Virus record (IMG/VR): IMGVR_UViG_3300043468_001158
DNA length: 64,000 bases
DNA from: a virus
Lineage: Duplodnaviria; Caudoviricetes
Direction: 5' to 3' (one strand)
Shown one piece after another: positions 6,718 through 38,353 of the stretch. The position numbers and the translations under genes were made by a program. Under the pieces are notes generated by a model that worked only from the letters and a program-made list of their open reading frames with translations, searched no databases and had not been told where the DNA came from. Positions within the stretch are counted from its first letter, which is position 1, and each line of letters opens with the position of its first letter.

Positions 6718-7812
6718 ATGCTTACTTTTTCATCTTATCTTTTAGAAGATAAACTTCCTCGTGCTATTTTATGCGAAGGAGGAAATGTTCAGATTGGTGA
6801 CCATGCGGCTCAACATATTAACTTAGAAGACCACGATAGAGATATCGTGTCAGATGTTATTATGAAGTCACTGGTTGAATTGAACCATTCCTTCAAAGAA
6901 GATACCGGGCTTTACATCTGGAAACCATCAGTTCTCAAAGACGGAAAGATTTTCTCAGGTTCAACTAAACACTTTTTCGATAGTCGTATTCCAACAGAAA
7001 CTTTTGTCAAACACAAAAAGTCCGTTGGCGATATTGATTTGATGGTTGATGAAAACTTGAAGAAACAAATCATCGCTTTCATCTCTGACCGCAAAGGCGA
7101 AAACTTTGGAAGTTTGGAGCTAATAGGTTCTCAACAATCCGGCGACCAAACAATCACTCTTTGGAAGTTGGAACCTATGGGTATCAATGTTCAGGTTGAT
7201 TTGGAGTATGTAGAATTTCTAAAAGATGAGCCGACTGAATGGTCTGAGTTTTCACATTCGGCTTCTTTTGAAGATATGGAAATTGGTATCAAAGGAGCCT
7301 TCCATAAACTTCTAATGACGTCACTAATGGGACATACAAAAGCTGATGCCATTCTTCAAATGAAGACTAAGCAGAAAGATATCAAAGCTGGAACTCATGC
7401 TCTTTCAATCAAGGGATTACGTAAAAAGTTTGAAAAGATTGGCGAACTTGATGGAAAGAATGTTGTCAGAGAAACGGGTTCTAAAGAATGGAACCGCAAC
7501 TTCTATGATATCTTAAGAGAGATTTTCGGTAAAGAAGCAAGTGCCGATGAAGTCAAAATGTTTTGGTCTTATACTGGAATTCTAAAGCTTTTGAAAAAGA
7601 ATATGGCTAAAGATGATTTGAAAAAAGTATTTGAAGAATTCATTGATAGATTATTTGGCGAAGGAGCACAAGGTTTATATCGTGGTGACCCAAATCGAGA
7701 TTTAGATGAAAAGATGGTTGCGTTGAAATATGCTAAAGAGAAATTAAATCTAGATTTAGACGAACATGCATTGCATAGATTACAAAAAGAATTCTACGAA
7801 AAGTACAAGTAA
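6718..7812 (+). CDS. Pol-beta-superfamily nucleotidyltransferase-like protein with capsid-targeting-like N-terminus
   Basis: IFSGST...KSVGDIDLMVD (GS and DxD) plus a later VQVDLE acidic strand; N-terminus MLTFSSYLLE. Confidence 0.65.
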   Translation: MLTFSSYLLEDKLPRAILCEGGNVQIGDHAAQHINLEDHDRDIVSDVIMKSLVELNHSFKEDTGLYIWKPSVLKDGKIFSGSTKHFFDSRIPTETFVKHKKSVGDIDLMVDENLKKQIIAFISDRKGENFGSLELIGSQQSGDQTITLWKLEPMGINVQVDLEYVEFLKDEPTEWSEFSHSASFEDMEIGIKGAFHKLLMTSLMGHTKADAILQMKTKQKDIKAGTHALSIKGLRKKFEKIGELDGKNVVRETGSKEWNRNFYDILREIFGKEASADEVKMFWSYTGILKLLKKNMAKDDLKKVFEEFIDRLFGEGAQGLYRGDPNRDLDEKMVALKYAKEKLNLDLDEHALHRLQKEFYEKYK

Positions 7813-8490
7813 ATGATTACATTCAAAGAATACTTATTAGGGGAGATGACATTAGTCGACCCTGCGGTATCTGCCAAAATGTTATACGATTATTTAGATG
7901 ATATAGAACCTTTGATTATTCATGGTGGTGGAGTAACTCATATTGGTGACATTGAAGAATATCAAGTATATCATACTAAGTATAACAATTATGAAGTATA
8001 TGCTTTAAGAAAGGATGATGAAGTTGCTTGTGTATTCAAATGTATGTTTAGAACCTTTCCGATAATTGATAAAGTTCTTTATGTGTTTATCATGGTAACA
8101 AAACCCTCGTTTCAGGGTAAAGCTTTATCTGCAAAAATGATACACTTTTTCAATACTCGAGAAGTATGGCATGTGCTCATTGATGACTTATTATCTCCAT
8201 CGAATAAGAATAACCTAGAAAAGATTGCTAAAGATGAAAATTCTTCAGCATGCTGGTATAATGTAAAGACTGGTGAAATTGAGCCATTCAAAAATACTGA
8301 AGGAAAATACACATTCAATTTTGCTCATCCTGAAACACATTGGCAAATTCTTTTTCAGAAAAGACATAAAGGCGATAATGAAGATATCTTTAAGACTGAA
8401 GAAGTTTATTCAAGATTTTGGAAAAGGGAACATATAGCAGAATGTCGTATGATTAATGGATATGAACATTTAGGACTAGGAACCGATTAA
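7813..8490 (+). CDS. GNAT-like acetyltransferase with capsid-targeting-like N-terminus
   Basis: MVTKPSFQGKALSAKMI resembles GNAT motif A; paralogous to 9397 (YNxKT and WxI motifs); N-terminus MITFKEYLLGE. Confidence 0.6.
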   Translation: MITFKEYLLGEMTLVDPAVSAKMLYDYLDDIEPLIIHGGGVTHIGDIEEYQVYHTKYNNYEVYALRKDDEVACVFKCMFRTFPIIDKVLYVFIMVTKPSFQGKALSAKMIHFFNTREVWHVLIDDLLSPSNKNNLEKIAKDENSSACWYNVKTGEIEPFKNTEGKYTFNFAHPETHWQILFQKRHKGDNEDIFKTEEVYSRFWKREHIAECRMINGYEHLGLGTD

Positions 8491-8492
8491 GA

Positions 8493-9437
8493 ATGATTAC
8501 ATTTAGACAATTTTTAGCAGAAGAAAGCGAAAGCGAAATCGCTAAAACAAAGCGACAAGGCATTGTGCATTTTCAAGACATGAAGCCGGTTGAAGCATTA
8601 CAGTTTCTTCGTAAAATCAAAGATGAGATGAAGGGTAAGTTGAAAGACATTCCCGTTACTCTCAAAGTTGATGGAGGTTCTTTACGATTTGGTAAAGATA
8701 AGAAAGGTGAATACTTTCTGGAAACTGGTAATAGCGGTCCTATTCAGTCTAAGAAAGCTTTTTCAACTTTCAACCGTGATAAAGGTGTAACCTCTGAAGT
8801 CATCATTCAACGTGCTATGCATTATGATGATATCTATGACCATATTGAAGATAGTAAGATATGGGAAACTTTACCAAATGATGCTAAAGTGTCATGCGAA
8901 ATCCTATACAATCCAATGGGTGAAGAAGTCGAAGATGACCACTTAAAGTTCGTATCAGTGAAGTACAATGCTCATAAACTTGGAAAGCTAATGACATTGG
9001 TTCCAATCACAGTCACTGTATCTTCTACTGGAGCAGCACATCCTGATAAAGACAAGATTATTGATGACCTGCTTAATCAGTCGGATAAAGACATCAAAAT
9101 CATTTCGCCTAAACTGAAACCTCTTACTTTAGATGTTGAGGCTCACTTGAAACCACTTGAGTCCATTGGTGAAGATGCAGAGCAAATCCTGAAATCCCTG
9201 AAGCATGCTGACAAACCATTGAAGCTAGAGTATCAAGTCATTCTGAATGCAATCAAAGCTCGTGTAGCCGATGCTATCATGCAACATCCAATCAAAGGTA
9301 GGGATGTCATAGGGGATGAAATAGAAGGGTACGTAGTAGAACTCTCCGGAAAGCTTTATAAAGTCACTACTCCAAAGTTCAAACAAGCTAAGAAAGATGA
9401 GAAAAAAAAGACTACAGGAATCAGCTTTAGAATTTGA
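8493..9437 (+). CDS. KxDG ligase-fold covalent nucleotidyltransferase-like protein with capsid-targeting-like N-terminus
   Basis: Motif I TLKVDG, motif III CEILY, motif IV EIEGYVVE, motif V YKV; no OB domain; N-terminus MITFRQFLAEE. Confidence 0.65.
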   Translation: MITFRQFLAEESESEIAKTKRQGIVHFQDMKPVEALQFLRKIKDEMKGKLKDIPVTLKVDGGSLRFGKDKKGEYFLETGNSGPIQSKKAFSTFNRDKGVTSEVIIQRAMHYDDIYDHIEDSKIWETLPNDAKVSCEILYNPMGEEVEDDHLKFVSVKYNAHKLGKLMTLVPITVTVSSTGAAHPDKDKIIDDLLNQSDKDIKIISPKLKPLTLDVEAHLKPLESIGEDAEQILKSLKHADKPLKLEYQVILNAIKARVADAIMQHPIKGRDVIGDEIEGYVVELSGKLYKVTTPKFKQAKKDEKKKTTGISFRI

Positions 9438-10095
9438 AGTTACTGACTTATCTTATATTGATAAAGTACCAAATCATTCTCGTGATTTTAGGGCATTTAA
9501 GTTTCTAAATGAAGATTCAGCACAACCATTACCAGAACTAACCAAAAATGAACTTGCAAAAATTGATATGGATTCATGTAAGCTTTTTGGAACAATGAAT
9601 CAAATTGATATCTATCTAAGTGGTATATATGCAGGTCATCATACATTTGTTATTTTTGATGAAAAAACTAAAAACCCATTAGCATTCATAGTAGTGCAGA
9701 CCCAACCAATAATGTTGGCAGGCGAAGAACGAACACTAGAAGTTAGGTCTTGGACTCATCCAGCAGAACGAGGAAAAGGCTATGCTACTACCTTATATCA
9801 ATTTCTTGTTAAAAAACTTGAGTTGAAGTTAGTATGCGATGATATGTTATCGGATGATGCAGTCAAAATGTATAAACAGTTCATAGCAAAACGAAAATTT
9901 GATAACATTAGTTTTTATAATGAAAAGACTAAACAGGTTCAAGACGATGAACCCTCAAATTTATGGACAATGCCAAATCAGTGGCGAATTTTTCTAGAAT
10001 CATTTGATTCTATTGGCGGTCCGAAACCATTGTTTGGCAAGCCTGGTCTTAGACATATTGGCGAATCATGTTATGATAACATTGGATTTGATTAA
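9397..10095 (+). CDS. GNAT acetyltransferase
   Basis: WTHPAERGKGYATTLYQFL is a canonical acetyl-CoA-binding motif A; SDDAVKMY motif B; overlaps the previous gene by 41 nt. Confidence 0.75.
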   Translation: MRKKRLQESALEFEVTDLSYIDKVPNHSRDFRAFKFLNEDSAQPLPELTKNELAKIDMDSCKLFGTMNQIDIYLSGIYAGHHTFVIFDEKTKNPLAFIVVQTQPIMLAGEERTLEVRSWTHPAERGKGYATTLYQFLVKKLELKLVCDDMLSDDAVKMYKQFIAKRKFDNISFYNEKTKQVQDDEPSNLWTMPNQWRIFLESFDSIGGPKPLFGKPGLRHIGESCYDNIGFD

Positions 10096-10133
10096 AATTG
10101 TGAAGCCAGTAACAGTTTTCAGCCATTGAACTA

Positions 10134-10162
10134 TTTACAAGACATCTTTTACAAGATACAAT
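10134..10162 (+). promoter_or_regulatory. sigma70-type early promoter
   Basis: TTTACA-N17-TACAAT. Confidence 0.7.
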
Positions 10163-10178
10163 AGTTCCATATACAGAG

Positions 10179-10898
10179 ATGAGTATAGGAACTGCTACGA
10201 TGAGCACTCAAAAACCAAAAACCGTATTAGCAATAAGTGATGTCTTTTCCCGTATTCCTACGAAAAAACCATCAAAATGCACAGTGACACTGGACTCAGG
10301 ACAACGAGTTCCAGTCACACCTTCATTGGTACGTATCTTCAGTCTTCATGCAATTCATAATCATGCTCTTGAATGTAGCATTTGTGGTTGTATGGCTACA
10401 CATCTACAACAAGATTTTCAACGCCAAGCCGATGGAACCAATTGTGAAATTTGGCAATTGAAAGCTTGGAACAAAGAAAGTGAAAGACAAGTCTATCTAA
10501 ACGTTGATCATATTCTTCCACGTTCATTAGGTGGTACTTTAGAACCTTCAAATATGCGGATTGCATGTTCTCGTTGTAATGTAAAACGTGGAACTTCATT
10601 AGAAGGTATTGAACTTCCAGAACATATTCAAGTTCATAGCACGTTCTTCAATCTTCAAAAAACAATTGAATACTTGATAAAGAAGTATGCTACAAAAGTG
10701 AAAAAATTCAATGTTAAAATTGTTCATTTCAAAAACTACATCAACAAATACCTGATTGCTCGTAGCCAAAGTTATCGTCGTACAACCGATAGAACCATCT
10801 TCAGAAAAGCTGTTAGCTGTGGTCTAACTCAAATCGGCTTTACCTTTGCAATTGATGAACTTGATGCAATCGTAGATGCCAGTGCAATCGCCCTATAA
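10179..10898 (+). CDS. HNH endonuclease with Zn-ribbon
   Basis: CSICGC; VDHILPRSLGG...SNMRIACSRCNVKRG. Confidence 0.85.
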   Translation: MSIGTATMSTQKPKTVLAISDVFSRIPTKKPSKCTVTLDSGQRVPVTPSLVRIFSLHAIHNHALECSICGCMATHLQQDFQRQADGTNCEIWQLKAWNKESERQVYLNVDHILPRSLGGTLEPSNMRIACSRCNVKRGTSLEGIELPEHIQVHSTFFNLQKTIEYLIKKYATKVKKFNVKIVHFKNYINKYLIARSQSYRRTTDRTIFRKAVSCGLTQIGFTFAIDELDAIVDASAIAL

Positions 10899-10920
10899 TA
10901 CAAAGAGAGAATAACCCCAT

Positions 10921-11511
10921 ATGAAAGAAATGAATGTCCAATTTTCAGAAAACTTTGCCCAATTGTACAAAGACGAAGTTCGCAATAATGAACAACGTCT
11001 TGAAGCTGATGGCTTAATTCGAACTATTCAAAACATTGGTTTATCTCGTACATACAGGCTTCGGCAGTTTCGTTCTCTAATGCGACAATATTGGATTTAT
11101 CGAAACAAAGATAACTTGAAGCCGTTTCAAATTGCTTCTCAATTACCATTTGTTGAATTCGAATCTGACCTGTTCATTGAGAATACCAAACAACATGTCA
11201 AGTATCTTGAAGACACCGGATTTACAAAGTTGGATATTGACCTATTGCAACATATGATACATGATATGCTTTATCCCTATTGTGCAGGTGTTTATTTCCA
11301 TTCAGGACTGAACCTTGTTGTTAGAACAATGGAACCAGCATTCCTAAAAGATGTACAAAATGCTAAGTACTTCTTAGCTCATTTGCCAAAATCAATTAGA
11401 CAAAGTGATCATAAAGACATCTTCCGTTCTTTCTTGTACTACCAACATGCAATGCGGTCTTTAGGAGGAAATGAACAAAGAGGTTCTTTAGCAGAACTGT
11501 TACCAAAGTAA
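10921..11511 (+). CDS. Hypothetical protein
   Basis: ORF tiles the operon; no motif recognised. Confidence 0.75.
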   Translation: MKEMNVQFSENFAQLYKDEVRNNEQRLEADGLIRTIQNIGLSRTYRLRQFRSLMRQYWIYRNKDNLKPFQIASQLPFVEFESDLFIENTKQHVKYLEDTGFTKLDIDLLQHMIHDMLYPYCAGVYFHSGLNLVVRTMEPAFLKDVQNAKYFLAHLPKSIRQSDHKDIFRSFLYYQHAMRSLGGNEQRGSLAELLPK

Positions 11512-11523
11512 CAGTTTTAGCTA

Positions 11524-11552
11524 TTTACAAGTCTGTGGTTTGTTGATACAAT
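11524..11552 (+). promoter_or_regulatory. sigma70-type early promoter
   Basis: TTTACA-N17-TACAAT. Confidence 0.7.
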
Positions 11553-11586
11553 AGACCCATACTAAATCAATACGGAGTTTACTACG

Positions 11587-12180
11587 ATGACAACTAAATC
11601 AGCCACTGAACAATACGCAGCAATCAAAGTCAATCATGTCAAATACTTGGACGAGTTGAAGATTGTTGATGCTAACTTGGTTCGCATTCGCCCATTGCTT
11701 GAAGCTGAAAAAGGTTTCAACAAGTTGAACGGCACAAAAATCAACTTTATCAAAGAAGAGTTCCGTGTTGCCAAAGATGAGCAACTTCGCTTGTATGGCA
11801 TCTTGAAAAAAATCAATGCAGACCTTCGTGCGTTACGTGCCGGTGTTGATGCAGAACGTCATACTGCTCCTAAAGGTACAGGAAGCAAAAAAGCTCCACG
11901 TGACCCAAGTGTAAAAGCTGCCGCAAAGGCTGCAAAGGAAGCTGCTAAAGAAGCAGATAAAGCTGCAAAGAAAGCTGCTAAAGAAGCAGAACGTGAAAGA
12001 ACAAAAGCTGAACGTGATGCAAGACGTGAAGCTCGTCGTGAAGAATTGGAATTTATGAATAAGCCTGCATGTGGATACAACTTTCCATTATTGACTGATG
12101 CCGAACGTGCTGGTACAAAAATCATGAACCAAGTTTTTGCTAAGGTTGCTAAATCAACAGTTGTTGGTCCTGGAGTATAA
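11587..12180 (+). CDS. Basic Ala/Lys-rich protein (histone-H1-like low-complexity tract)
   Basis: KAAAKAAKEAAKEADKAAKKAAKEAERE; GGAG RBS; has its own promoter. Confidence 0.75.
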   Translation: MTTKSATEQYAAIKVNHVKYLDELKIVDANLVRIRPLLEAEKGFNKLNGTKINFIKEEFRVAKDEQLRLYGILKKINADLRALRAGVDAERHTAPKGTGSKKAPRDPSVKAAAKAAKEAAKEADKAAKKAAKEAERERTKAERDARREARREELEFMNKPACGYNFPLLTDAERAGTKIMNQVFAKVAKSTVVGPGV

Positions 12181-12184
12181 CTAC

Positions 12185-12985
12185 ATGTCAAAATACTACG
12201 TAAGATTTGTCCATTTCGCTCCGGATAATAAATCACAAAAAACTCCGGAAAATCCAAATCCTCAAGATAAGTCTTTGGTCTGGGCAATGTTGTATGATGA
12301 AGAAAGCCAAAGTGAATATGGTTCTCTCGCATGCGGATACATTCCAAATCGTTTGAACCTTGAAGAAATTGATAAGGAACAACATTATAGTGTCAATATG
12401 ATTACTTCATATTATATGGAGCATTTGAATGGTGGGCGAACTAACAATCGTCAATATGCCAGAATTGAAGATTATTGGAATGACCCATGTGTAAAAGATA
12501 AAGTTCAAGCTAAGTATCGTGAAGGTATGGAGTTCTGCTTTGCTTATATTGGCGACCCTGATCGTCTTGATGTTATCTATGAATTTACTATCAAAGCTAC
12601 ATTTGGACATCAATATAAACTGACTGGACATTTATATGATGATGCGACTCCTCCTGAAAGCTGGTATAATGAAGTTCATGCTAAACTGATTACCGAACTA
12701 AATGGCTTAGAAGTATTTGAGTCTGCTAGTGAAGCTATTCAGGGTCAATCTAAAGCAGATGACCTATTTGGCGAAAGATACTTCCCAGTTGCTAAAGCTC
12801 CGGTTTGGCAATACAAACAGTTGATTGAAGCTTGTCATGCATTCAAAGGTTGCTCAAACCCATTATATGATGACAAGTTTGTGTATATTGGTATTAGAAG
12901 CAAACAGGATGAACTTTGTGAAATAAACGAAATCTATAGTATCGAAGGTGGTGCTATACTCAAAAATAGAGAATGGAATTGGTAA
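12185..12985 (+). CDS. Hypothetical protein
   Basis: Start moved to the ATG at 12185 (MSKYYVRF), just after the upstream stop. Confidence 0.7.
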   Translation: MSKYYVRFVHFAPDNKSQKTPENPNPQDKSLVWAMLYDEESQSEYGSLACGYIPNRLNLEEIDKEQHYSVNMITSYYMEHLNGGRTNNRQYARIEDYWNDPCVKDKVQAKYREGMEFCFAYIGDPDRLDVIYEFTIKATFGHQYKLTGHLYDDATPPESWYNEVHAKLITELNGLEVFESASEAIQGQSKADDLFGERYFPVAKAPVWQYKQLIEACHAFKGCSNPLYDDKFVYIGIRSKQDELCEINEIYSIEGGAILKNREWNW

Positions 12986-12991
12986 GAACTT

Positions 12992-13549
12992 ATGATAACA
13001 ACTTATAAAGAACAACTCAAAAACCAACTTATATCAAAATTTGTGGAATTCAATAATGTAAAAATACCGCAGATTGAACAAGCGTTAGAAAAATCAATAA
13101 AAGAACATTTTCAATACGAAAAAAACAAAACTGTTGAGGTAGGTAAATTATATAGTCCATTTATTACTAATTTTATAATGAACAGCCTTCAACAAATCAT
13201 ACCTGGTTTTGAAGAATGTAAAACTGAAGGATATGATTTTTTGATAAACGATATTGCGGTTGAAAACAAAATTACTTTTTCTGATAAGTCTCAATGGACA
13301 GGAAACAAATATTCGTCAAAAGTGAGTAATCATTTATTGACTAAATGTTGTCTTGACGATGAATTTAGAATTTTAAGTTTTATTACAATGCATGTCGATT
13401 TAGATAAAATGAATTCGAAATGGACTTCAGGAAATGATAGTTCAGGCTTCACAAAATTACAAATTCTTAAAGAAGACTTGGATGAAGTGTCTCTTATTTA
13501 CGGAAACCCTCTCGTCACAAAAAGAGCAACCTACTTACAATTTATATGA
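12992..13549 (+). CDS. PD-(D/E)xK restriction-endonuclease-like protein
   Basis: GYDFLINDIAVENKITF gives a D...ExK active-site pattern; appears AT-richer than its neighbours. Confidence 0.55.
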   Translation: MITTYKEQLKNQLISKFVEFNNVKIPQIEQALEKSIKEHFQYEKNKTVEVGKLYSPFITNFIMNSLQQIIPGFEECKTEGYDFLINDIAVENKITFSDKSQWTGNKYSSKVSNHLLTKCCLDDEFRILSFITMHVDLDKMNSKWTSGNDSSGFTKLQILKEDLDEVSLIYGNPLVTKRATYLQFI

Positions 13550-13731
13550 TAACAACTGAACAACGATTACATGCTCTATTACACGGTCTTGGCCTGAGTA
13601 CTGATAGTATCAATAAGGTCAAGCTCTATAATGCAGAGCAAATACGAGATGTCGGTAAAGCAATTTCTGATGGCCGACTGTTTGATGTATCTTTAGATAG
13701 ACAACTCAATGTAAAGGTGAAACGATCATGA
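13546..13731 (+). CDS. Small hypothetical protein, paralogue A
   Basis: LHALLHGLGL...DVSL aligns with 13728. Confidence 0.75.
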   Translation: MITTEQRLHALLHGLGLSTDSINKVKLYNAEQIRDVGKAISDGRLFDVSLDRQLNVKVKRS

Positions 13732-13952
13732 ACACAAAAGAAGCTCAATTACGTGCATTGCTTGGTGGCTTAGGCCTAACTCATGAAAGCATTGAACGTG
13801 CAGTCAATATGGACCCATCTGAACTTTGTGAAGTTGGTGCGACATTGACGCAAGGTTCAAATGTTGAAGTTAGTCTCAATGAAGCTTTTGAAATTGAAAT
13901 GTCTTGGGACCCGTCATATAAACCGGAAGTAGCTTCACAACTTGAGTCTTAA
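13728..13952 (+). CDS. Small hypothetical protein, paralogue B
   Basis: LRALLGGLGL...EVSL aligns with 13546; 4-nt ATGA overlap. Confidence 0.75.
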   Translation: MNTKEAQLRALLGGLGLTHESIERAVNMDPSELCEVGATLTQGSNVEVSLNEAFEIEMSWDPSYKPEVASQLES

Positions 13953-13963
13953 AATCGTAAATC

Positions 13964-13979
13964 TGATAACTGGTTATCA
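13964..13979. promoter_or_regulatory. Palindromic operator-like site TGATAAC-TG-GTTATCA
   Basis: Perfect 7-bp inverted repeat 10 bp upstream of the -35; second copy at 41701. Confidence 0.65.
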
Positions 13980-13989
13980 CTTGCCACTA

Positions 13990-14018
13990 TTTACAAGTTG
14001 CGGCAAGTGATGTATAAT
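13990..14018 (+). promoter_or_regulatory. sigma70-type early promoter (topoisomerase operon)
   Basis: TTTACA-N17-TATAAT followed by ggacacat. Confidence 0.75.
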
Positions 14019-14059
14019 GGACACATACAAACAAACTGATACGAGAGGAGTATTTTATA

Positions 14060-14227: not shown

Positions 14228-14262
14228 ATAGATTCCATTATAACTCGTGAAAAACAAATCAT

Positions 14263-16167: not shown

Positions 16168-16204
16168 TTGTGTTATAATAATACCATATTCATAAAGGAA
16201 CACT

Positions 16205-23317: not shown

Positions 23318-23325
23318 CATAAATA
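23318..23325 (+). promoter_or_regulatory. Late-type promoter CATAAATA
   Basis: About 50 nt upstream of 23375. Confidence 0.55.
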
Positions 23326-23374
23326 GATTTTACATTATAAGTAATCTACACAAACATTTCAATATCAACTTTAT

Positions 23375-24838
23375 ATGAGTATATCGTTCAAATCATTCTT
23401 ACTAGAAACTCAATTCGATACATCCGAGCTTATTGAAAAGACTGCTCGTTCAGGAGAATATGATTCTAAGTGGCGAACCTATATCCTAAAAAAGCTTATC
23501 AATAAACATGAACCTCTTGAATTGAAAGATGGGACAAAGATTGTTATTGATACTGAAAATGCATTAGTCAAACATTTATTAGCTCTTATTCCAGATAAAA
23601 ATGAAAAGCTTATTGGAGATAAAGCCAATGAGCTAAAAGACTTTCTCAAGAAAGAAAAACCATTCGTTGATAAAAGTGGAACTGCATATAAGTTATCAGA
23701 TATCAAAAAGTCTGAAGCATTTGGTGGTGGCACTAAAGGTTCAGGTGGTGGAGCAGCTGATACTGAAAAGAATGAAAGCTTACAATGCGTTGCTCTTGCA
23801 TTACGTCAGAATAAAAACAAAAAAATTGACATTGATGATTTCAATGAAGATGATATCAAAGAATCTGATAAGTATTTCGATATTTCATTTACTTATAGTA
23901 ATCCTCAAGAATTAGCAGATGAATTAGTTTCAAATGAAACGTGGTCTAAAGTGTATGTCAATACTGCAAATAAACTATTTTCTTATTTGAAACTAGATGA
24001 AACTCTAAACTTTTATAGAGGTAATTCATGGGTTAAATCTTTATATGATTTAGCTAAGAAACTTGATAAGAATGACAATTCTACTTTTTCTAACTTTAAC
24101 AAATGGAATCCTGCAGATATATGGTTAGTAAAAGATTCTATCAAAGTTCCCCATGATATGACATCTTTATTAGAACTCAATCAATGGCTTATTGATAAGT
24201 TCAAAGACCGCACAGTAATCGGAGTATCACTGAAAAAAACCGAAGATGCTTCCGTCAAAGAAATCAATCTTGATAATGCAATTGAAGATATTGCTAAGAT
24301 TGATGGTATTAAGTTTATGATTGAATCTCGAAATGATATCTTTAGAGCTAAAGATGCTTATATAGTTTTTGATGAAGATAAACTTCAATTAAGAACTGAC
24401 CAAAAAGATAAACCTGTCAATATTCAAGGTGAAATAAAAGGAACTAAAGCGGCTCACGGAAAAATCGGATTTGGAAACATTCAAAAGATTCTAAAAAATC
24501 TAAATCTATCTCAATTAGAATCTGCTGCAGAACTAAAAAGTTTGATAGATAATTCAACTCTTGATAAAAAGAAACGTTATATCAAATTGATTCCAAAGAT
24601 GACACAATATGTCAAGAGTATTTCAAATCATTATTCAATCGATTATATTGAAGAACAATTTTTAGCAAGTAAAAATACTGAAAGCGATGGTTGGGTTATT
24701 TCAAAACTTCAAGCAGTTCAGCTAATAAGTATATTGAAAAAAGAATCAGAACAAACTCAAATCGATTTTGTTCTAAATGCTATTACTATTGCAGCAAGCA
24801 AAAGTGATTTATCTTCCGTTTATGCTAAAGTAAGTTAG
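23375..24838 (+). CDS. PD-(D/E)xK-like nuclease-fold protein with capsid-targeting-like N-terminus
   Basis: EKNESLQC...KWNPADIWL...IGVSLKK; N-terminus MSISFKSFLLE. Confidence 0.55.
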   Translation: MSISFKSFLLETQFDTSELIEKTARSGEYDSKWRTYILKKLINKHEPLELKDGTKIVIDTENALVKHLLALIPDKNEKLIGDKANELKDFLKKEKPFVDKSGTAYKLSDIKKSEAFGGGTKGSGGGAADTEKNESLQCVALALRQNKNKKIDIDDFNEDDIKESDKYFDISFTYSNPQELADELVSNETWSKVYVNTANKLFSYLKLDETLNFYRGNSWVKSLYDLAKKLDKNDNSTFSNFNKWNPADIWLVKDSIKVPHDMTSLLELNQWLIDKFKDRTVIGVSLKKTEDASVKEINLDNAIEDIAKIDGIKFMIESRNDIFRAKDAYIVFDEDKLQLRTDQKDKPVNIQGEIKGTKAAHGKIGFGNIQKILKNLNLSQLESAAELKSLIDNSTLDKKKRYIKLIPKMTQYVKSISNHYSIDYIEEQFLASKNTESDGWVISKLQAVQLISILKKESEQTQIDFVLNAITIAASKSDLSSVYAKVS

Positions 24839-28580: not shown

Positions 28581-28598
28581 TAGTATTGGTGTTATGAC

Positions 28599-28606: not shown

Positions 28607-28641
28607 GCTTATGGCATATCATACACAATCAACAGGCAAGC

Positions 28642-31600: not shown

Positions 31601-33492
31601 ATAATATTGACCTCATAAACTCTGGTATTGTTGCTGGAACTTACAATAACATTACGGTTGATGCGAGAGGATTAGCTTGGGCTGGTTCTAATGTAGCTTA
31701 TTTGACAAGCAATCAAAACATCACTTTATCGGGTGATGTATCTGGTTCTGGAACGACTGCTATTACGGCAACTCTTGCAAACTCTGGTGTTGTGGCTGGT
31801 ACTTACAATGGTATCACTGTCAATGCTAAGGGTATTGTGACTAATGCGGTCAATCAAAACTACTTGACTGCTAATCAAACGATTACGATTACAGGTGATG
31901 CAACTGGTTCAGGAACTACTTCCATTCCATTGACATTGAATGTCGTGCCAATTATCAAAGGTGGTACTGGTCAAACGACTGCTCTTGCCGGTTTCAATGC
32001 ATTGTCTCCACTCACAACTAAAGGTGATATACTTGCCCATACTGGTGCGAACAATGTTAGACAGCCTGTTGGAACTAATGGCTACTTCTTGATGTCTGAC
32101 GATACCTCAGTGACAGGGCTATCTTATCAACCGGTGATTACGACTGATAGATTTACGAAGATTACTGCAAATGATACTACTTCAGACTATCTTGCATCTA
32201 AAGTAGTAGCCGGTTCTGGCATTTCGCTAACAGTCAATAACTCAGGAGCTAACGAAACTCTAACGATTGCAAGTACAATGACATCTGCTGACCAAGCAGT
32301 CTGTCAAGTTGCTAACACTGCCACAAGCTCGATTACCACTACTTTTGCAAACGTTACTTGGCAAACTCAACATATTGAGAATAACGCATCAGTTATCGTA
32401 TGGGCATCAGGAGCTCCAGTCACAGTTGGACAAACTGGTCTTTATGAACTTGGTTATAGCATTCCAATAGTTTCAAGAAATGCTACACGTACTATCAGTG
32501 TTCAAATGTTGAAGAATGGAACCACTGTTCTAAATGGTTCTACCTCAGCATTTACTTTTGCATCAAATACAACAGGTTCTTTAGAGAATGTGTTTGCGGC
32601 TGACTTAGTATCAGGTGACTTTATCACGGTTCAAGTAAGAACTTCAACTGGAACAGACACTCTTGCAATTGGAGCTTGTCTAACAGTGACCCGTCTTTCA
32701 GGTGCTACTGGCCCTGTTGGTCCGCAAGGTATTCAAGGTATTCAAGGTGAAGTTGGTCCTCAAGGTCCTCAAGGTGTTTCTGGCCCAATGGGTCCTGCGG
32801 GTTCAGGAAGTTCTATCAATCTTCAAGATGAAGGTGTGATTGTATCAGGTGGTCCATTTACTCAATTGAACTTTACTGGTCCATTGGTAAGTGCAACTAA
32901 TGCTGGTTCAGGTGTTGGTCAAATCAACGTGAATGCTAATGTTGATGCTCTTTCTGATGTAACTATTACTTCACCACAACATGGTCAATTACTTGTCTAT
33001 AATTCAGTGACATCTAATTGGGAAAATGCATTCTTGACGGTTCTTTCGCCAGTCGGAAAAACCTTTACGTTAGACTTTGGAAGTCAAGCTAATGCAGGTA
33101 CTAACATTTGGCTTGGGTGCGACGACGTTATCGTTCCTTCAAATGCAACACCGCATATTATGCCATGGGATTGTCAATTAGTTGGACTTACTTTCTCTAA
33201 TACTGTCGCAAACTCAGGTTGTGATATTGAGCTTCGTAAAGTTGCATGGAATGCTGGAAATCAAACTTCAACATTACAACTTACTGTTCCACTTCGTAAT
33301 GCAAGAGCAGCAAGAAAGACAACATTTACTTCACCTATCACTTTTGCCGCTGGCGACCATGTTGGTATCTACTTACGAAGTGTTGCAGGTCAAACTAATC
33401 CATCTGCGTGCTTTGCAGTATTACACTTTATGATTACTTCAGATACTCAAGAAGATGTAACTGAAACTTGGACTGGTAATATGAGTTCATAA
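28642..33492 (+). CDS. Long tail fibre protein (~1616 aa), Thr/Gly/Ser-rich, with a duplicated module, a C1q-like domain and a collagen-like stretch
   Basis: Repeated AGTY..[VI]TVD..GR and LTGD.TGSG motifs, TKQYVD, DG.....GDRVLVK; GPVGPQGIQG triplets at 32701-32802. Confidence 0.85.
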   Translation: MTIIDNSFTVSDLSINDQLLIFGGDQDPSVTQEEAPKGSLFLRTTGHIFLKTGPNNADWTTLSIIDRLSAISSADSTPGYLQDKIVPASNLQVALLNASGNEQLQLDLANTGIAAGSYTRLVIDSKGRATSGTNPTTLAGYGIVDAQPLNANLTSISGSSTLGFLTRTAPGTIVTRSLTTSTLDIVNPSGTAGNASIDLAAIGLPVSNSFVKITTDNFGRVSATSSVTSSDIITSLGYTPVNNAGDSMTGLLTLSGDPTNPLHATTKQYVDNAITGLDFKTSVKAATTANITLSGAQTIDGIALVAGDRVLVKNQTTTSQNGIYVVATGAWSRATDADNSGNGAEVTTGMYCYVDQGSTQASSGWTLTTTGTITLGTTGLVFTQFNGLGQITAGNGLSKTGNTLNVGTGSSTRIVVGTDTIDLATSGVTAGTYNTITVDAYGRATVGANTAYLTGNQSISLTGDATGSGTTSIPVTLANVVTAGTSPKVTYNAKGLVTGGTSLIASDIPSLDWSKITTGKPTTLAGYGITDAQPLSPRLTSLATNAVFGLIVNLPGNVVDSRILHSNTLDVVFADGISGNPTVDLPFFGTAGTYNNVTVDVYGRVSSGSNVAYLTGNQSITITGDGNGSGTTSIPFTLNTVNGNVGSFGSSTAVPQLTVNAKGLVTAVTNTSIAFPVTSVAGMTGTVTLTSSNVGLGSVQNALQVINAGGATSLASGTLVSRPSAGTANRFYVTTDTAGLYRDNGSSWDLILPALSGDVNSSAGNTTLTLATIGTPVSNSFVKITTDTKGRVSATSSVTSSDITTALGYTPVNKAGDSMTGAITLSGDPTLPLHAATKQYVDNVVTGLDFKNSVRIASTGNLTLSGLQTIDGIVSVIGDRILVKDQTTASQNGIYVIASGAWTRSTDADSNAEVTSGLYTYVEQGTNNAGSGWVLSTSNPITVGTTSLTFTQFNGLAQLIAGNGLTKTGNTLNVNAAGGSPIQVNADNIDLINSGIVAGTYNNITVDARGLAWAGSNVAYLTSNQNITLSGDVSGSGTTAITATLANSGVVAGTYNGITVNAKGIVTNAVNQNYLTANQTITITGDATGSGTTSIPLTLNVVPIIKGGTGQTTALAGFNALSPLTTKGDILAHTGANNVRQPVGTNGYFLMSDDTSVTGLSYQPVITTDRFTKITANDTTSDYLASKVVAGSGISLTVNNSGANETLTIASTMTSADQAVCQVANTATSSITTTFANVTWQTQHIENNASVIVWASGAPVTVGQTGLYELGYSIPIVSRNATRTISVQMLKNGTTVLNGSTSAFTFASNTTGSLENVFAADLVSGDFITVQVRTSTGTDTLAIGACLTVTRLSGATGPVGPQGIQGIQGEVGPQGPQGVSGPMGPAGSGSSINLQDEGVIVSGGPFTQLNFTGPLVSATNAGSGVGQINVNANVDALSDVTITSPQHGQLLVYNSVTSNWENAFLTVLSPVGKTFTLDFGSQANAGTNIWLGCDDVIVPSNATPHIMPWDCQLVGLTFSNTVANSGCDIELRKVAWNAGNQTSTLQLTVPLRNARAARKTTFTSPITFAAGDHVGIYLRSVAGQTNPSACFAVLHFMITSDTQEDVTETWTGNMSS
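29236..31780 (+). repeat. Internal duplication of a ~280-aa module in the tail fibre (approx. 29236-30075 and 30946-31780)
   Basis: PVSNSFVKITTD...LGYTPVN.AGDSMTG...FTQFNG; identical 32-mer at 29254-29285 and 30967-30998. Confidence 0.85.
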
Positions 33493-33495
33493 ATA
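33488..33495 (+). promoter_or_regulatory. Late-type promoter CATAAATA
   Basis: Overlaps the fibre-gene stop codon. Confidence 0.5.
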
Positions 33496-33524
33496 GACTA
33501 AACCTTTAGGAAACAATTAAGAAC

Positions 33525-34463
33525 ATGGCAACACAAATTATCAAACTCAAAAACAATACACAACGTATCTTATCTTTTGCTGGTAAGGATTTACAAGTGG
33601 GTGAAGAACTTGATGTCACTCCATCAATACAATCGTATTACAAAGAAGATACTGAGCTCTTTGATATGATAGGCTGTTTTGATATTATTGTCAATGATGG
33701 TATCAAAGACCTTAATCCGACTGAAGGTTGGAAATGGATACTTGGCAATGGTGGATTTCCAATGTCAGAAGTTGGTAACAAAGTTTGGGTGCATTCATCA
33801 GCTAAACCCGTTATTGATGGCAAGATGTTTTACAGCCAATGGATAGGAGCTGGAGATGATGAGCAAAATGGATTACTTGGACAAGGTCCTATAGCCGCTA
33901 TTCAAAACACTCCAGGTACTCCGCGTTCTCATGTAGATTTATTGTTTGATAGTAATTTCGGAGATACTTATGTTCATGAAGGATATGCAATGTGGCAAGA
34001 TGCAAAAATTGGTGATTATGTCAATGCTTTGATTTGTGCAGAAGGTTGTCATTTACAACAAGTTCAAGATTTAGATTTAGTCATTGACGAAGACGGTTAC
34101 ATTACATATTCGACTGGAGGACCTGGAACTGGAACGCATGGGTTTGCATCAGCACCTTATTTGCTTCCGAGAACTTTTAGCAAAGATGGCGATTGGGATT
34201 ATGATGAAACTAATGGGTTACGTCCTAATTTTACTAAGACAGGTGGGTATAAGATGTCTGTCAATGAATCGATAATCCACCGGTTCATTAATAGAATGCC
34301 AGTGCTTGGAACCAATGGTCATCCAGTTCGTTTAGCATCCGAAGATACATTCAAACTTCCTCATGGATACTTCTTACGATTGGAATGCGTGAACGTTTCA
34401 GATAGCACATGGGCAGCCGCATTCTTTATTACTGTTTATCGCGAAAGAACTTATAAGCCATAA
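33525..34463 (+). CDS. Probable virion structural protein (fibre-associated)
   Basis: Late position; IIVNDG..DL...GW N-terminal block seen in phage fibre-linked proteins. Confidence 0.6.
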   Translation: MATQIIKLKNNTQRILSFAGKDLQVGEELDVTPSIQSYYKEDTELFDMIGCFDIIVNDGIKDLNPTEGWKWILGNGGFPMSEVGNKVWVHSSAKPVIDGKMFYSQWIGAGDDEQNGLLGQGPIAAIQNTPGTPRSHVDLLFDSNFGDTYVHEGYAMWQDAKIGDYVNALICAEGCHLQQVQDLDLVIDEDGYITYSTGGPGTGTHGFASAPYLLPRTFSKDGDWDYDETNGLRPNFTKTGGYKMSVNESIIHRFINRMPVLGTNGHPVRLASEDTFKLPHGYFLRLECVNVSDSTWAAAFFITVYRERTYKP

Positions 34464-34466
34464 TAA

Positions 34467-34835
34467 ATGTCTATCAATTCTTGTTCAATCAATGCTTTCA
34501 CAATCAATGGCCTGGCTTGCAGGAGAAGATTTGGTAACCCAATTCCACCGCAACCTGTTACTGGCGGTGGGAATGTTCAGCATTATCGTTATCAAAACTG
34601 GTTTGGAAGACCTGATGATGATGATGAAGAACAAGAAGATACTCTTCAGAACTTAGAAGGATTCAACATTTCCGTTTCGGTTACAATGAATGGACAAACT
34701 TTTAGCCAAACTATTGAGAATAATCCAGCTAATAATGTTGTACCAATGATTGCATTGACTAATCTACAATTTGAACAAACAATACCTAATATCAAACTAA
34801 ACAATCTAAAACTAAGAAGGGAACGTAAAGAATGA
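34467..34835 (+). CDS. Hypothetical late protein
   Basis: MSINSCSINAFTING N-terminus; acidic patch. Confidence 0.7.
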   Translation: MSINSCSINAFTINGLACRRRFGNPIPPQPVTGGGNVQHYRYQNWFGRPDDDDEEQEDTLQNLEGFNISVSVTMNGQTFSQTIENNPANNVVPMIALTNLQFEQTIPNIKLNNLKLRRERKE

Positions 34836-35554
34836 ATGTCGCCTCTAATAACATAGAACTTGGTGAAGATTTCAAAGTCTCATTTGGTCTAAGCATTGCT
34901 GGAACATCAGCAACTCCAAGTGAAGTGCGAGTATTCTTATCTTGCTGTGAATCCATTAGACTTTGCAGTATCGCTACATTGAATAGTGGTTCGAATGAAT
35001 ATGAAACTTCTATTCCCATTTTGACAAGTCTGTTTAGTGGTAAGACTTCTGCAAAGCTATCAATTGAAGTTGTACTGAATGGTAAAGTGATTACTCCATA
35101 TTCGCAAACGATTGATTTGAATTCACCATCAGTTGAAGTGACGTCTGATACTCCTCCTTCTGATAATGCTATTAGAACTGATACATCAAACTTCATTACT
35201 CAAGATGAATTACGTCAAGCTGCTCAACGTTATGTTGAACAACCTAAGCCGCCTAGTTCAATCTTTTCGTTTGAAGACCTTATTCAATTAGATAAAGAGG
35301 AAAAAGTTATTGAGGAAAAAGCTACACCTACTCCTAAAAAGCAAATCCAATTTACTAAGCCTGTTCGTCAAGAACGTAAAGCACCAGCACCATCAATTGA
35401 CTTAGAGACTTTAGTGAATGTAGCCGAAGCTAAATTGAATGAAACTAAACCAAAAGTCAAACAAAGTGTTACAATAGACAAACCAATCAAAATAGTGAAG
35501 GAGCAAACTTCGTCACTGTTCAAACTTTCAAAAACTAAAATAGTAGAGAGATAA
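34832..35554 (+). CDS. Hypothetical late protein
   Basis: Beta-rich N-terminus, disordered C-terminus. Confidence 0.7.
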   Translation: MNVASNNIELGEDFKVSFGLSIAGTSATPSEVRVFLSCCESIRLCSIATLNSGSNEYETSIPILTSLFSGKTSAKLSIEVVLNGKVITPYSQTIDLNSPSVEVTSDTPPSDNAIRTDTSNFITQDELRQAAQRYVEQPKPPSSIFSFEDLIQLDKEEKVIEEKATPTPKKQIQFTKPVRQERKAPAPSIDLETLVNVAEAKLNETKPKVKQSVTIDKPIKIVKEQTSSLFKLSKTKIVER

Positions 35555-35562
35555 TACCATAT

Positions 35563-35751
35563 ATGAGAAGTTATAGCGATAACGCAATATCTAAAGAACA
35601 ATTTGAAGCACTTGAAAATGTAGCTGCTACAACATTTTCTAACCAAGAATACGTCAAACGTAAAGCCAGAATAGCGGTTGTTCTTGCATATGCTTCAGTC
35701 ATTCTGGCTTCAATCAGCTTAGGCATTTCAATTTACAGCGTATTCAACTAA
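35563..35751 (+). CDS. Small protein with C-terminal TM helix
   Basis: IAVVLAYASVILASISLGISIYSVF. Confidence 0.6.
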   Translation: MRSYSDNAISKEQFEALENVAATTFSNQEYVKRKARIAVVLAYASVILASISLGISIYSVFN

Positions 35752-35752
35752 T

Positions 35753-35959
35753 ATGTCTAATCAATCATCACTCTTACAACGTTCATATTCTGAAGAAGAT
35801 TTAGAAAAACTAAAACACCTTATGTCATTTAGAACTTATGAGTTCTCGAAAGAAGATGAACCTTTTTCACGTGACTATTCAAACAATAAAGGTCGATTGC
35901 AAAGACAAGAAGCTTATCAAGCCTTCAAGACAAAGTTGAATGAAATGTGTGACGAATAG
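35753..35959 (+). CDS. Small hypothetical protein
   Basis: Tiling ORF. Confidence 0.6.
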   Translation: MSNQSSLLQRSYSEEDLEKLKHLMSFRTYEFSKEDEPFSRDYSNNKGRLQRQEAYQAFKTKLNEMCDE

Positions 35960-35992
35960 TCAAATCTGATACCCACTTCACAAAAATAACCG

Positions 35993-36020
35993 TTTACATC
36001 TGACATTGATGTTGTATAAT
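35993..36020 (+). promoter_or_regulatory. sigma70-type early promoter
   Basis: TTTACA-N16-TATAAT-agacacat. Confidence 0.7.
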
Positions 36021-36049
36021 AGACACATGTTCAAACAAATGTAGAGTGA

Positions 36050-36232
36050 ATGAAGATGAACGCACAACACCTATTGAACTTCCTACTTGCCGCTGCTAAT
36101 GCAGGTGTCAATCTTCGTGAATTTGAAGTTATGACTCGTTCAACTACTTATGATGGTTTAGGTCAAGGTGAAGACCTTGAAACCTATCCAGAACAAGTTG
36201 AACTTGATGAAGACTATTTGGTTTTTAGATAA
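36050..36232 (+). CDS. Small early hypothetical protein
   Basis: First ORF after the promoter. Confidence 0.6.
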   Translation: MKMNAQHLLNFLLAAANAGVNLREFEVMTRSTTYDGLGQGEDLETYPEQVELDEDYLVFR

Positions 36233-36495
36233 TGGTAGCTTCAGGGTTTGGGTTTAGATTTGAAGGAACAGTAGTCACCAATGAAAAGACTGGTGATAGT
36301 GTTCAAGTAGGACGAACCTTTTCCCGTTCAAACCATAAACAAAAAGAACTAGCAATCAAAATCCTTCGTGCTCGTCAATGGGCACGAGAAAACGGTTATG
36401 GACCATCTGAAGAAATCGTAGCAAACTATGAAAACCCAGATGATGAACCATTTCCACACCACCAACCCGATTATAGAGATAGGCCTTTGCCATGA
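36232..36495 (+). CDS. Small early hypothetical protein
   Basis: Tiling ORF. Confidence 0.6.
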   Translation: MVASGFGFRFEGTVVTNEKTGDSVQVGRTFSRSNHKQKELAIKILRARQWARENGYGPSEEIVANYENPDDEPFPHHQPDYRDRPLP

Positions 36496-37595
36496 CGATG
36501 ATGCACTTTCCAATTATCACTCACATTGATGAACTACGAGAAAAAGTAGAACACTTACCTGAAATCCGCTTTGCATTACAAGAAAATGGCACTACTGTTG
36601 TTTGTGCTATGATTTCTGACAGTGATACTTATTCTGGCGATGCTGGTCCTTGGGCTCGTGAATGCCGTGGTATCGTTTTTGATGCACGAGGCAAATTGAT
36701 TGCTCGTCCAATTCACAAGTTCTTCAATGTTGGCGAACGTCCTGACACTCATCATCAAGTATTGCCTTGGAATGCTACAGTTCGCAAAATGGACAAACGT
36801 GATGGTTCTGTCATCAATCCTGTTATCGTGAATGGCGCGATGAAGTTCAAATCCAAGAAGTCATTTACTTCTGAGCGAGCAGTCCAAGCTGAACAATTTG
36901 CATCACTAAACGACAGAAGATTTAGCTGGGAAATGTTATCAAATGGCTTTACGCCAACATTTGAATTGACTTCTCCTTATGCTCGTATTGTCATGAAGTA
37001 TCCTACTAGCAAATTGACTTTGTTACATGTTCGTGAAAATACTACTGGTCGATACTTAGACAAAATGAGCTTGATGACTTTAGCTGAAGAGTTTCAAATT
37101 GACTTAGTCAGTGAATACTCTCCAACAAATTGGACTTGGGCTGAAGACAAAGCTTATCTTGAATCTGTTGAAGGTATTGAAGGCTATGTGTATCAGTTTG
37201 AAAATGGAGACATGGTCAAAGCAAAGTCTAAATGGTATCTTGACCGTCATCATGCAATGACTGCACTAACTTATCGCAATGTAGCAGAGCTGGTTGTTGC
37301 TGAAGGTATTGACGATTTGAAGTCTCACATTGTAGAAATGGGCGAACCTGATTTGCTTGAAAAGATTGAACATATCGAACATGAAATCACTCGTCAAGTT
37401 TCTGAAATGGCTGACTTTGTAGAAACGATTGTTCGAAATGAACGTCATCTTGAACGTAAAGAGTTTGCTATGAAGTTCAAAGAACTACCTGGCTTTGGAT
37501 TACTTATGAAAGCTTATGAAGGCAAAGAACCTAACTACTTAGAGTTCTATGCCCGTCATCATTTGAAAAATGATTGGGAAGTGTTAACTCTTTAA
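36492..37595 (+). CDS. rnlA: T4 Rnl1-family RNA ligase
   Basis: ECRGIVF, KFFNVGE, KRDGS (motif I), FELTSP, EGIEGYV, MVKAKSKWY. Confidence 0.9.
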   Translation: MTMMHFPIITHIDELREKVEHLPEIRFALQENGTTVVCAMISDSDTYSGDAGPWARECRGIVFDARGKLIARPIHKFFNVGERPDTHHQVLPWNATVRKMDKRDGSVINPVIVNGAMKFKSKKSFTSERAVQAEQFASLNDRRFSWEMLSNGFTPTFELTSPYARIVMKYPTSKLTLLHVRENTTGRYLDKMSLMTLAEEFQIDLVSEYSPTNWTWAEDKAYLESVEGIEGYVYQFENGDMVKAKSKWYLDRHHAMTALTYRNVAELVVAEGIDDLKSHIVEMGEPDLLEKIEHIEHEITRQVSEMADFVETIVRNERHLERKEFAMKFKELPGFGLLMKAYEGKEPNYLEFYARHHLKNDWEVLTL

Positions 37596-38353
37596 TTTTC
37601 TACTGATAAGCTGGCGTCATCTAGATTTTTGACATAGTTGTCTAACTTATCAAGAAATCCATTATTACGAATAGTTTTCCATGCAAGATTTTCAACACTA
37701 AACTCGCCCGAGTTTTTCTCAAGACCGCTCTGACGTAATCGTTTGATGCGGTCTTTTAGTATCTGCACACTATCACGGTCAGTTACTTTATCATCTATCA
37801 ATGAAGTAATTTGGTCCATGATTTCACCCGCTTTAGACTTTACTGAAGTATCATCATATGTCGGTGGAACCGGATTACCAAACGATGGTTGCTTTATCCA
37901 CTTTTTCTTTCTAACACTGTAAATGCCAGCAGCAACAAGTTTATCGCCTTCAGGTTGTGCGTATAGTTCTACTGGATAACCATGAATTTTGATATCATGA
38001 TCTTTATTCCACAAGTTCTTCTTAGCTTTGAAGCAATCTTCTATGAAACTTCCAGGACAATCTGGACATGCTTTCTTTTCATTGACTATCAAATGCAAAT
38101 CAATGTCTGAAAGTTTTGAATAGTTGAAAGAACAATTCGAACCAGTGATAATGATATCTGATACTGAACTTGATGGGATTGACAAGAATTCGATAAACTC
38201 TTGAGCAATTCTTTCAAGTGCTTCTGCAACTCGTTCATTAAGTTTATTCTGTTCCCATAACTTTGGGTTCAATGTATCATGATATTCAAGATGTGTTTTA
38301 ATTTTAGCATAATCTTGCTTTTCATGAAGATATTGTTTGAAAGAAGTTCCCAC
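37592..38353 (-). CDS. Pol-beta-superfamily nucleotidyltransferase with capsid-targeting-like N-terminus (GTG start)
   Basis: ITGSNCSFNYSKLSDIDLHL, PVELYAQ; N-terminus MGTSFKQYLHE; TATAAATA upstream. Confidence 0.8.
   Translation of the reverse strand: MGTSFKQYLHEKQDYAKIKTHLEYHDTLNPKLWEQNKLNERVAEALERIAQEFIEFLSIPSSSVSDIIITGSNCSFNYSKLSDIDLHLIVNEKKACPDCPGSFIEDCFKAKKNLWNKDHDIKIHGYPVELYAQPEGDKLVAAGIYSVRKKKWIKQPSFGNPVPPTYDDTSVKSKAGEIMDQITSLIDDKVTDRDSVQILKDRIKRLRQSGLEKNSGEFSVENLAWKTIRNNGFLDKLDNYVKNLDDASLSVEN

Follow-up and report, generated by a model that had tools for sequence, protein, structure and literature searches.

The internal proteins (IPs) of bacteriophage T4 are directed to the phage head by an N-terminal capsid-targeting sequence (CTS). 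The Mullaney–Black experiments found that packaging requires no more of IPIII than its first 10 residues (reviewed in PMC9026906). Residues 4 and 7 of the CTS are the main targeting determinants and residues 8 and 10 those for processing, and the sequence has already been proposed as a general route for loading diverse proteins in T4-like phages (PMC9026906). Here we analyse a viral DNA of 64,000 nucleotides (IMG/VR record IMGVR_UViG_3300043468_001158; this whole stretch is called the window below) in which five genes, starting at 6718, 7813, 8493, 23375 and, on the minus strand, 38353, begin with the tag consensus M-x-[ST]-F-[KRS]-x-[FY]-L-x(1,2)-E. We consider it likely that this tag is a T4-type CTS and that the five proteins, named A to E, are loaded into the head, trimmed and injected together with the DNA.

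The likeness to T4 IPI-III covers the N-terminal 10-mer itself (positions 4 and 7 aromatic, Leu or Ile at 8, Glu at 10); the placement of the tag on unrelated, scattered genes, for which late expression is predicted; and the presence in the same phage of a T4-type scaffold and capsid together with a protease of the gp21 type. In the T4 record, ipII and ipIII start with MKTYQEFIAE and ipI starts with MKTFKEF. There are also differences. T4 IPs are basic proteins of 8–20 kDa, whereas the candidate cargo described here consists of near-neutral enzymes of ~25–55 kDa. The phage is also very distant from T4: the nearest isolate is the jumbo Ralstonia phage RsoM2USA, the best match of its gp39 topoisomerase subunit at 50% identity. 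Unlike the T4 IP system, its genome encodes at least one more leader class (‘IAGI’).

A second point of comparison is the T4 ADP-ribosyltransferase Alt, likewise an enzyme that is packaged in the head, trimmed by gp21, injected, and active before phage gene expression. Alt is a single enzyme, whereas several candidate cargo enzymes of other classes (RNA ligase, Pol-beta nucleotidyltransferases, GNAT) are found here. The Dar antirestriction proteins of phage P1 and the ejection proteins of phiKZ and SPN3US are likewise carried into the head by propeptides or terminal signals and accompany the DNA at delivery, and phiKZ-type proteases likewise cleave after Glu. Those systems use other signals, cleavage motifs and head-assembly lineages than the one considered here.

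The N-terminal tag and its conservation

The five tagged genes are:
6718–7812, plus strand: A, putative Pol-beta-type nucleotidyltransferase of 364 residues, tag MLTFSSYLLE (6718–6747)
7813–8490, plus strand: B, probable GNAT acetyltransferase of 225 residues, tag MITFKEYLLGE (7813–7845), start codon abutting the stop codon of A
8493–9437, plus strand: C, predicted ATP-dependent RNA-ligase-fold enzyme of 314 residues, tag MITFRQFLAE (8493–8522)
23375–24838, plus strand: D, phage-specific protein of 487 residues with no known fold (phrog_1462), tag MSISFKSFLLE (23375–23407)
37592–38353, minus strand: E, putative Pol-beta/MNT-type nucleotidyltransferase of 253 residues (phrog_36119), GTG start, tag MGTSFKQYLHE (38321–38353)

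All five N-termini read as given in the preliminary description of this DNA. When its regular expression for the tag was run over all six frames, 12 start codons matched, among them the five tagged gene starts. Of all start codons in six frames, these five alone matched the stricter pattern M.{1,3}F[KRS][EQS][FY]L.{1,2}E. From amino-acid composition, 0.04 (loose pattern) and 0.0005 (strict pattern) hits are expected in 110 N-termini, and the probability of five or more is ~6e-10. The tag core occurs five times in the 15,508 residues of the long open reading frames (ORFs), each time at the N-terminus (residue 4 or 5) and never internally, and no ORF of the window besides the five carries the tag. 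Because the tag codons differ at synonymous positions among the five genes, selection appears to act on the peptide and not on the DNA. The upstream sequences and ribosome-binding sites of the tagged genes differ as well. The proteins behind the tags are mutually unrelated by BLAST and by fold, and in the AlphaFold models of C and D the tag is disordered or detached from the fold.

To compare the tag with the functional positions of the T4 CTS, we used a collection of 66 distinct tags from the window, one relative and three protein families. At the positions equivalent to T4 residues 4, 7, 8 and 10, these tags contain Phe (65/66), Tyr or Phe (65/66), Leu or Ile (64/66) and Glu, respectively. 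The residue preceding the first aromatic is Ser or Thr in 53 of the 66, as it is in T4. The relative G001, a 164-kb IMG/VR contig with an estimated completeness of 46%, contains the A-B-C block in the same order with all three proteins tagged (MISFKQFLLLE, MTSFKEYLQE and MTTFKEYLVE) and an E orthologue starting with MKISFKDYLLE. Its orthologues of A, C and E are 54, 46 and 63% identical to those of the window and have kept the tag. In total, 8–9 proteins of G001 are tagged, 4 or 5 of them in addition to the orthologues of A, B, C and E.

The tag is also retained within the wider protein families. In a 28-sequence alignment of the C family it persists down to ~40% identity, ahead of a linker whose length varies. 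It is also carried by many D-family proteins, for example as MKSFKQYITE in a protein of ~32% identity. In the E family, 25 of 64 members have the strict tag; the rest include proteins with short [LIF]xE leaders such as MRIFEIAAK, MLLLELAAK and MYLRELTQE.

The A family is the most informative about where a leader would end. In A itself, the tag is followed by the linker DKLPRAILCE, which places a second L-x-E (E20) directly before the GGN at which the conserved domain starts throughout the family (616 relatives). Among 149 family representatives, 61 are leaderless and start with MGGN. Since the leader-bearing members read ...[LI]xE|GGN, the predicted cut would regenerate the leaderless N-terminus. 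From these comparisons, the leaders appear to be exchangeable modules that would be cut at a domain boundary, a feature that is new here. Thirty-four members of the A family are polyproteins of more than 800 residues, mostly with the nucleotidyltransferase module at or near the N-terminus. As a side observation, an A-type module forms the first domain of proteins of 1000–2078 residues in related phages (P0281, P0282, P0291, P0302 and others), which start with MxLxELF-type leaders and have the look of enzyme polyproteins addressed to the capsid.

Prohead protease, other leaders and cyanophage virions

The window is part of the genome of an uncultured, probably jumbo, T4-like myophage. Its GC content is ~37%, and its PHROG and Pfam matches identify both T4-type topoisomerase II subunits (gp39 and gp52), RNA ligases 1 and 2, a helicase, giant tail-fibre-like proteins and a cluster of the TelA/TerD/vWA type. 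A megablast comparison of 20 kb of the window with the INPHARED phages returned no close isolate relative, and an exact 45-mer had no match in IMG/VR. The clade is a freshwater one, with relatives in many JGI lake metagenomes. Letter-for-letter copies of window proteins are present on many metagenome contigs of up to 0.2–1 Mb, and contigs with exactly matching proteins led us to the head module, starting from a locus identical to window positions 60250–64000 and proceeding through six further look-ups.

The head module (locus L059) lies ~47 kb past the end of the window and encodes a T4-type portal, protease, scaffold and Gp23-family capsid protein, all of which contain [LI]xE sites. The protease is a 206-residue Peptidase_S77 (gp21-type) protein with intact catalytic His and Ser (GELTHP and GVSSRG). 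The scaffold has 306 residues (MDEILQKLLE...), the capsid protein features the site ...QQLME|TAAAG, and a gp67-like protein is also encoded. Six further small proteins of the module bear leaders, among them MKPEKSMKELFEIAGIKDID...LITE, MKINELFTE and MKDFEKLMKIAGITNINE. The same head module, including the protease, is present in G001. A complex prediction for the phage's own protease and residues 1–40 of C had a score of 0.00, which gives no verdict and counts neither way.

A 140-residue Peptidase_S77-like protein encoded inside the window (51905–52327, plus strand) was considered as the processing protease and rejected: its catalytic His is replaced (GQLGMP versus GELNHP), while the Ser is kept. 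It sits within the TelA/TerD/vWA-TerF cluster and is, from its motifs, probably an inactive protease-fold paralogue.

Besides the tag of A to E (class 1), the genome contains a second leader class, (K/E)(L/I)(F)EIAGI...[LI]xE, found on small proteins between protease and scaffold (L059 15461–19469, ~47.5–51.5 kb past the window end). The IAGI motif recurs in the gp67-like protein (KMKEIAGI), at the C-terminus of the scaffold (RIAGITS) and in one ORF of the window:
1–1755, minus strand: large ORF of at least 585 residues that runs off the window, starting with MFSTNTIAKLAGINNFVLNE (second leader class, ‘IAGI’ ... L-x-E)

This ORF had been listed, together with 9397, 55536 and 55772, among weaker L/I-x-E variants of the tag. 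It does bear a leader, which belongs to the second class and not to class 1. As a class, the weaker variants are at chance level: [LI]xE occurs within the first 12 residues of 10 of the 49 long genes, and five of these ten are untagged. The genes at 55536 and 55772 have only an [LI]xE, which is also present near the start of 11% of untagged genes and fits chance.

Two further sequence elements are recorded here as side observations. A third leader type, MKINELFTE, resembles the MAKINELLRE of T4 gp24. In addition, a C-terminal module, ...CQRELIE(N/K/R)(D/N)LDEYAE, ends five proteins of this genome, namely two window proteins resembling leucine-rich repeat proteins (58716–59369 and 59639–60253, plus strand) and three leader-bearing proteins beside the protease gene (L059 15944–17765). 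A tagged paralogue array in G001 (148–156 kb) ends in a related module, CQTELMKNGFKEY. The C-terminal module may serve as a second element for core binding or cleavage. Giant genes encoding proteins of 828, 1944, 1370, 3059 and 1189 residues follow one another in the interval from the window end to the baseplate genes (L052/L055/L057; window end +2.5 to +26 kb); these are almost devoid of Pfam matches and are presumably fibre or baseplate giants.

Virion proteomes of T4-like cyanophages offer a comparison. The tblastn match of E in cyanophage S-CREM2 is ORF156 (126012–126725), which is 43% identical. ORF156 was identified with 6 peptides in the S-CREM2 virion proteome, in which the cytidylyltransferase ORF154 was also detected (PMC10665884). 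ORF154 starts with MKNFSSFLTE. In cyanophage S-SCSM1, the ‘NMNAT’ ORF91, which starts with MKSFLQFLKE, was detected in virions by mass spectrometry, and such enzymes recur in cyanophage virions according to the authors (PMC9602691). Its neighbour in the numbering, ORF90, is a homologue of D and is a virion protein according to its GenBank annotation and the legend of Figure 2 (PMC9602691); the terms with which we searched the supplement of that study did not find ORF90 or ORF91. Cytidylyltransferases of other cyanophages start with MKSFTSFFTE, MKKFSAFLNE, MKKFSAFLTE or MKLFNQFFKE. The cyanophages resemble the phage described here in having homologues of D and E, which are listed as virion proteins, and, on their cytidylyltransferases, the same tag in the form MK[SNK]F..F[LF].E. 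They differ in that ligase or GNAT cargo is not reported in the two studies. The connection to the T4 CTS seems not to be drawn in either study, neither of which surfaced in a full-text search for ‘capsid targeting’ (PMC9602691, PMC10665884).

Candidate cargo and late-promoter-like boxes

C is the cargo protein with the firmest assignment. Across 28 sequences of its family, the residues K58-x-D60-G61, R65, E136, E278-G279 and K290 are invariant, corresponding to ligase motifs I, III, IV and V. No sequence-level Pfam or PDB match was found for C. In a Foldseek search, the top 26 matches were all RNA ligases, with probabilities of 0.98–1.0 and TM scores of only 0.31–0.40. The best of these was NgrRnl (5cot; E 2.7e-5, probability 1.0, TM 0.38), and T4 Rnl1, Rnl2, Rnl3 and REL1 were also matched. 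The model has an overall pLDDT of 90.7, and residues 1–20 average 67–73, with a short helix at 4–9 and a flexible linker behind it. The predicted structure and the motifs together strongly suggest that C is an RNA ligase. One ligase homologue of the C family (P0018) contains a PF14890 intein-splicing domain.

The gene that follows C overlaps it at a homopolymer run:
9397–10095, plus strand: F, GNAT acetyltransferase of 232 residues (Acetyltransf_1, 26.9 bits versus a cut-off of 20.7), without a class-1 tag of its own
9402–9409, plus strand: A8 run at the junction of C and F, whose frames overlap by 41 nt (9397–9437)

Over its whole length, F aligns with the C-terminal halves of two relatives of 534 and 540 residues, the N-terminal halves of which are the tagged ligase. 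An A7 run in place of A8 would fuse C and F, and an A9 run gives the C-terminus of a 99%-identical variant from another sample. The A8 run could be explained by slippage during transcription, by true variation between strains or by an assembly error in the homopolymer. The comparison suggests that, in the relatives at least, F probably travels within the C protein. The gene at 9397 had been put forward as another, weakly tagged gene (MRKKRLQE); it corresponds instead to the second half of a ligase–GNAT fusion in relatives, split here at the A8 run.

The motifs of A and E suggest Pol-beta-type nucleotidyltransferases. A contains GS...GDID, and its Atlas neighbours are viral ‘nucleotidyltransferase family’ clusters. 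E features the GS...DxD signature, of which G71, D83 and D85 are invariant in the E family and S72 is conserved in ≥90% of its members. On Pfam NTP_transf_2, E reaches 17.8 bits, below the 21-bit cut-off; PF01909 is found in some homologues. Searching the E profile against the PDB gave weak matches to a putative nucleotidyltransferase and to MNT (E 0.045–0.7). B is a probable GNAT: it matches F by BLAST at acetyl-CoA motif A (E 5e-4) and has an Atlas value of 0.95 to viral GNAT clusters, and no Pfam match was obtained for it. Nothing usable came from searching the PDB with the sequences of A to E or with profiles of the C and D families.

D had been described as a nuclease. Its model is confident (pLDDT 89.2 overall, with residues 1–11 below 50), but it matches no known fold: there was no Pfam match, no PDB match by sequence or profile, and no Foldseek match at E ≤ 0.001. 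The best VIA-align Z score was 3.9; restriction enzymes appeared there among numerous unrelated entries, and the Atlas neighbours are exclusively viral hypothetical proteins. An assignment as PD-(D/E)xK or other nuclease was set aside for want of a fold or family match in Pfam, PDB, Foldseek, VIA-align and Atlas. The D family has an invariant D248 ... S285-L-K287, which is suggestive only. With D as the query, no related loci were found in IMG/VR. The enzyme list of the preliminary description stands for the ligase (strongly) and for the two nucleotidyltransferases (by motifs and weak profile matches), stands as probable for the GNAT, and is not supported for the nuclease.

The box reported upstream of the tagged genes is real, although it is better written as ATAAATAG. 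In this form it has 10 matches compared to 3.4 expected, a number reached in none of 100 shuffles. Four of the boxes are:
6663–6670, plus strand: ATAAATAG box 48 nt upstream of A, overlapping the stop codon of the phosphoesterase gene that lies before A
23319–23326, plus strand: ATAAATAG box 49 nt upstream of D
38397–38404, minus strand: (T)ATAAATAG box 44 nt upstream of E
1801–1808, minus strand: ATAAATAG box 45 nt upstream of the second-class ORF that starts at 1755

That each tagged gene or operon has its box was borne out: the boxes precede 6718, 23375 and 38353 by 44–49 nt, and 7813 and 8493 come next after 6718, separated by 0 and 2 nt. The motif, which is similar to the T4 late promoter TATAAATA, is also found 44–49 nt before 55536 and ahead of tail-fibre-like genes. 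The tagged cytidylyltransferase gene of S-CREM2 has CTATAAATAG upstream. A sigma-70 consensus scan of positions 5800–10400 found 21 matches versus 19.3 expected, which is chance level.

Proposed delivery of the cargo, alternatives and implications

The claim that the tag is a T4-type CTS with a gp21-type site on late-type enzymes is well supported by comparison: by the functional positions, the protease, the modular leaders and the mass-spectrometric detection of homologues in cyanophage virions. In the mechanism that we propose, the aromatics at T4 positions 4 and 7 would anchor the protein to the scaffolding core during prohead assembly. Leu or Ile (8) and Glu (10) would form the cut site at which the gp21-type prohead protease removes the tag. 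The mature proteins would then stay in the head with the DNA and leave it at infection, as T4 internal proteins and Alt do. The predicted cargo would comprise a 35-kDa RNA ligase, nucleotidyltransferases of 40 and 28 kDa, a probable acetyltransferase of 25 kDa and the 54-kDa protein D. Our best guess for its role is RNA repair or modification and the modification of host proteins at the first moment of infection.

Several points weigh against the loading and injection of A to E. The phage is represented in metagenomes only. The late expression of the tagged units is something we infer from the box motif by itself. At a mature size of 25–54 kDa and a pI of 5.8–8.3, the cargo lacks the small, basic character of the IPs and is nearer to Alt. 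The virion-listed cyanophage homologues S-SCSM1 ORF90 and S-CREM2 ORF156 do not have the class-1 tag; they have other N-termini, with L-x-E or I-x-E. Finally, abundant proteins may co-purify with virions, as the authors of both cyanophage studies point out (PMC9602691, PMC10665884).

Among other explanations, the one that survives best, and which we nevertheless regard as unlikely, accepts that the tag loads the prohead and holds that the proteins act within the head, or that maturation expels or degrades them like scaffold fragments, and that they are not delivered in active form. Most T4 core proteins are indeed cut up and leave the head (PMC9026906), and A and D contain additional [LI]xE sites. 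However, T4 IPI-III are retained in the head and delivered, as are fusions of the CTS to green fluorescent protein (GFP) or beta-galactosidase (PMC9026906). Moreover, homologues were detected in mature, CsCl-purified virions, and an RNA ligase and nucleotidyltransferases would have no obvious substrate in a DNA-filled head.

It is highly improbable that the tag is instead a recognition or modification site for another enzyme, or a degradation or regulatory signal, and not a capsid address. At the positions defined by experiment, the tag agrees with the T4 CTS, and leaderless homologues begin at the predicted cut. Furthermore, the annotated parts of the window and of G001, where no dedicated search (for example, for radical-SAM enzymes) was made, showed no partner enzyme close to the tagged genes. 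Least probable of all is that the similarity is a by-product of recombining gene-start cassettes, or a translation-initiation or mRNA element, with a functionless peptide: the conserved 5' ends of T-even internal-protein genes are thought to promote gene shuffling, but the codons of the tags differ synonymously, the peptide is conserved across families at 30–40% identity, and upstream sequences and ribosome-binding sites differ.

Returning to the T4-type CTS as the preferred explanation, the mechanism is known from T4; what is new is the cargo, the modularity of the leaders and the link to hitherto unexplained cyanophage virion enzymes. A broader reading, which we offer as tentative and rather doubtful in its entirety, is that T4, freshwater jumbo T4-like phages and marine cyanophages have all kept a single portable address (two aromatics and [LI]-x-E). 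In the phage described here, it would load an RNA-repair and modification kit (an RNA ligase, which relatives have as a GNAT fusion, together with two Pol-beta nucleotidyltransferases and another GNAT), injected to pre-empt immunity that targets RNA or tRNA before phage genes are expressed; in related phages, the same nucleotidyltransferase module would head giant enzyme polyproteins that the protease can cut.

If the T4-type CTS explanation holds, the injected proteome of uncultured T4-like phages would be readable by a 10-residue rule, at least in these lineages, and the T4 protein-delivery trick of CTS fusions may carry over to distant phages. It would offer a possible reason why ‘non-structural’ enzymes such as cytidylyltransferases recur in cyanophage virion proteomes. 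It would also mean that nucleic-acid enzymes are delivered, and not small inhibitors alone. T4 counters RNA-cleaving defences only after gene expression. An injected RNA ligase and nucleotidyltransferases would be a pre-emptive counter to such defences.

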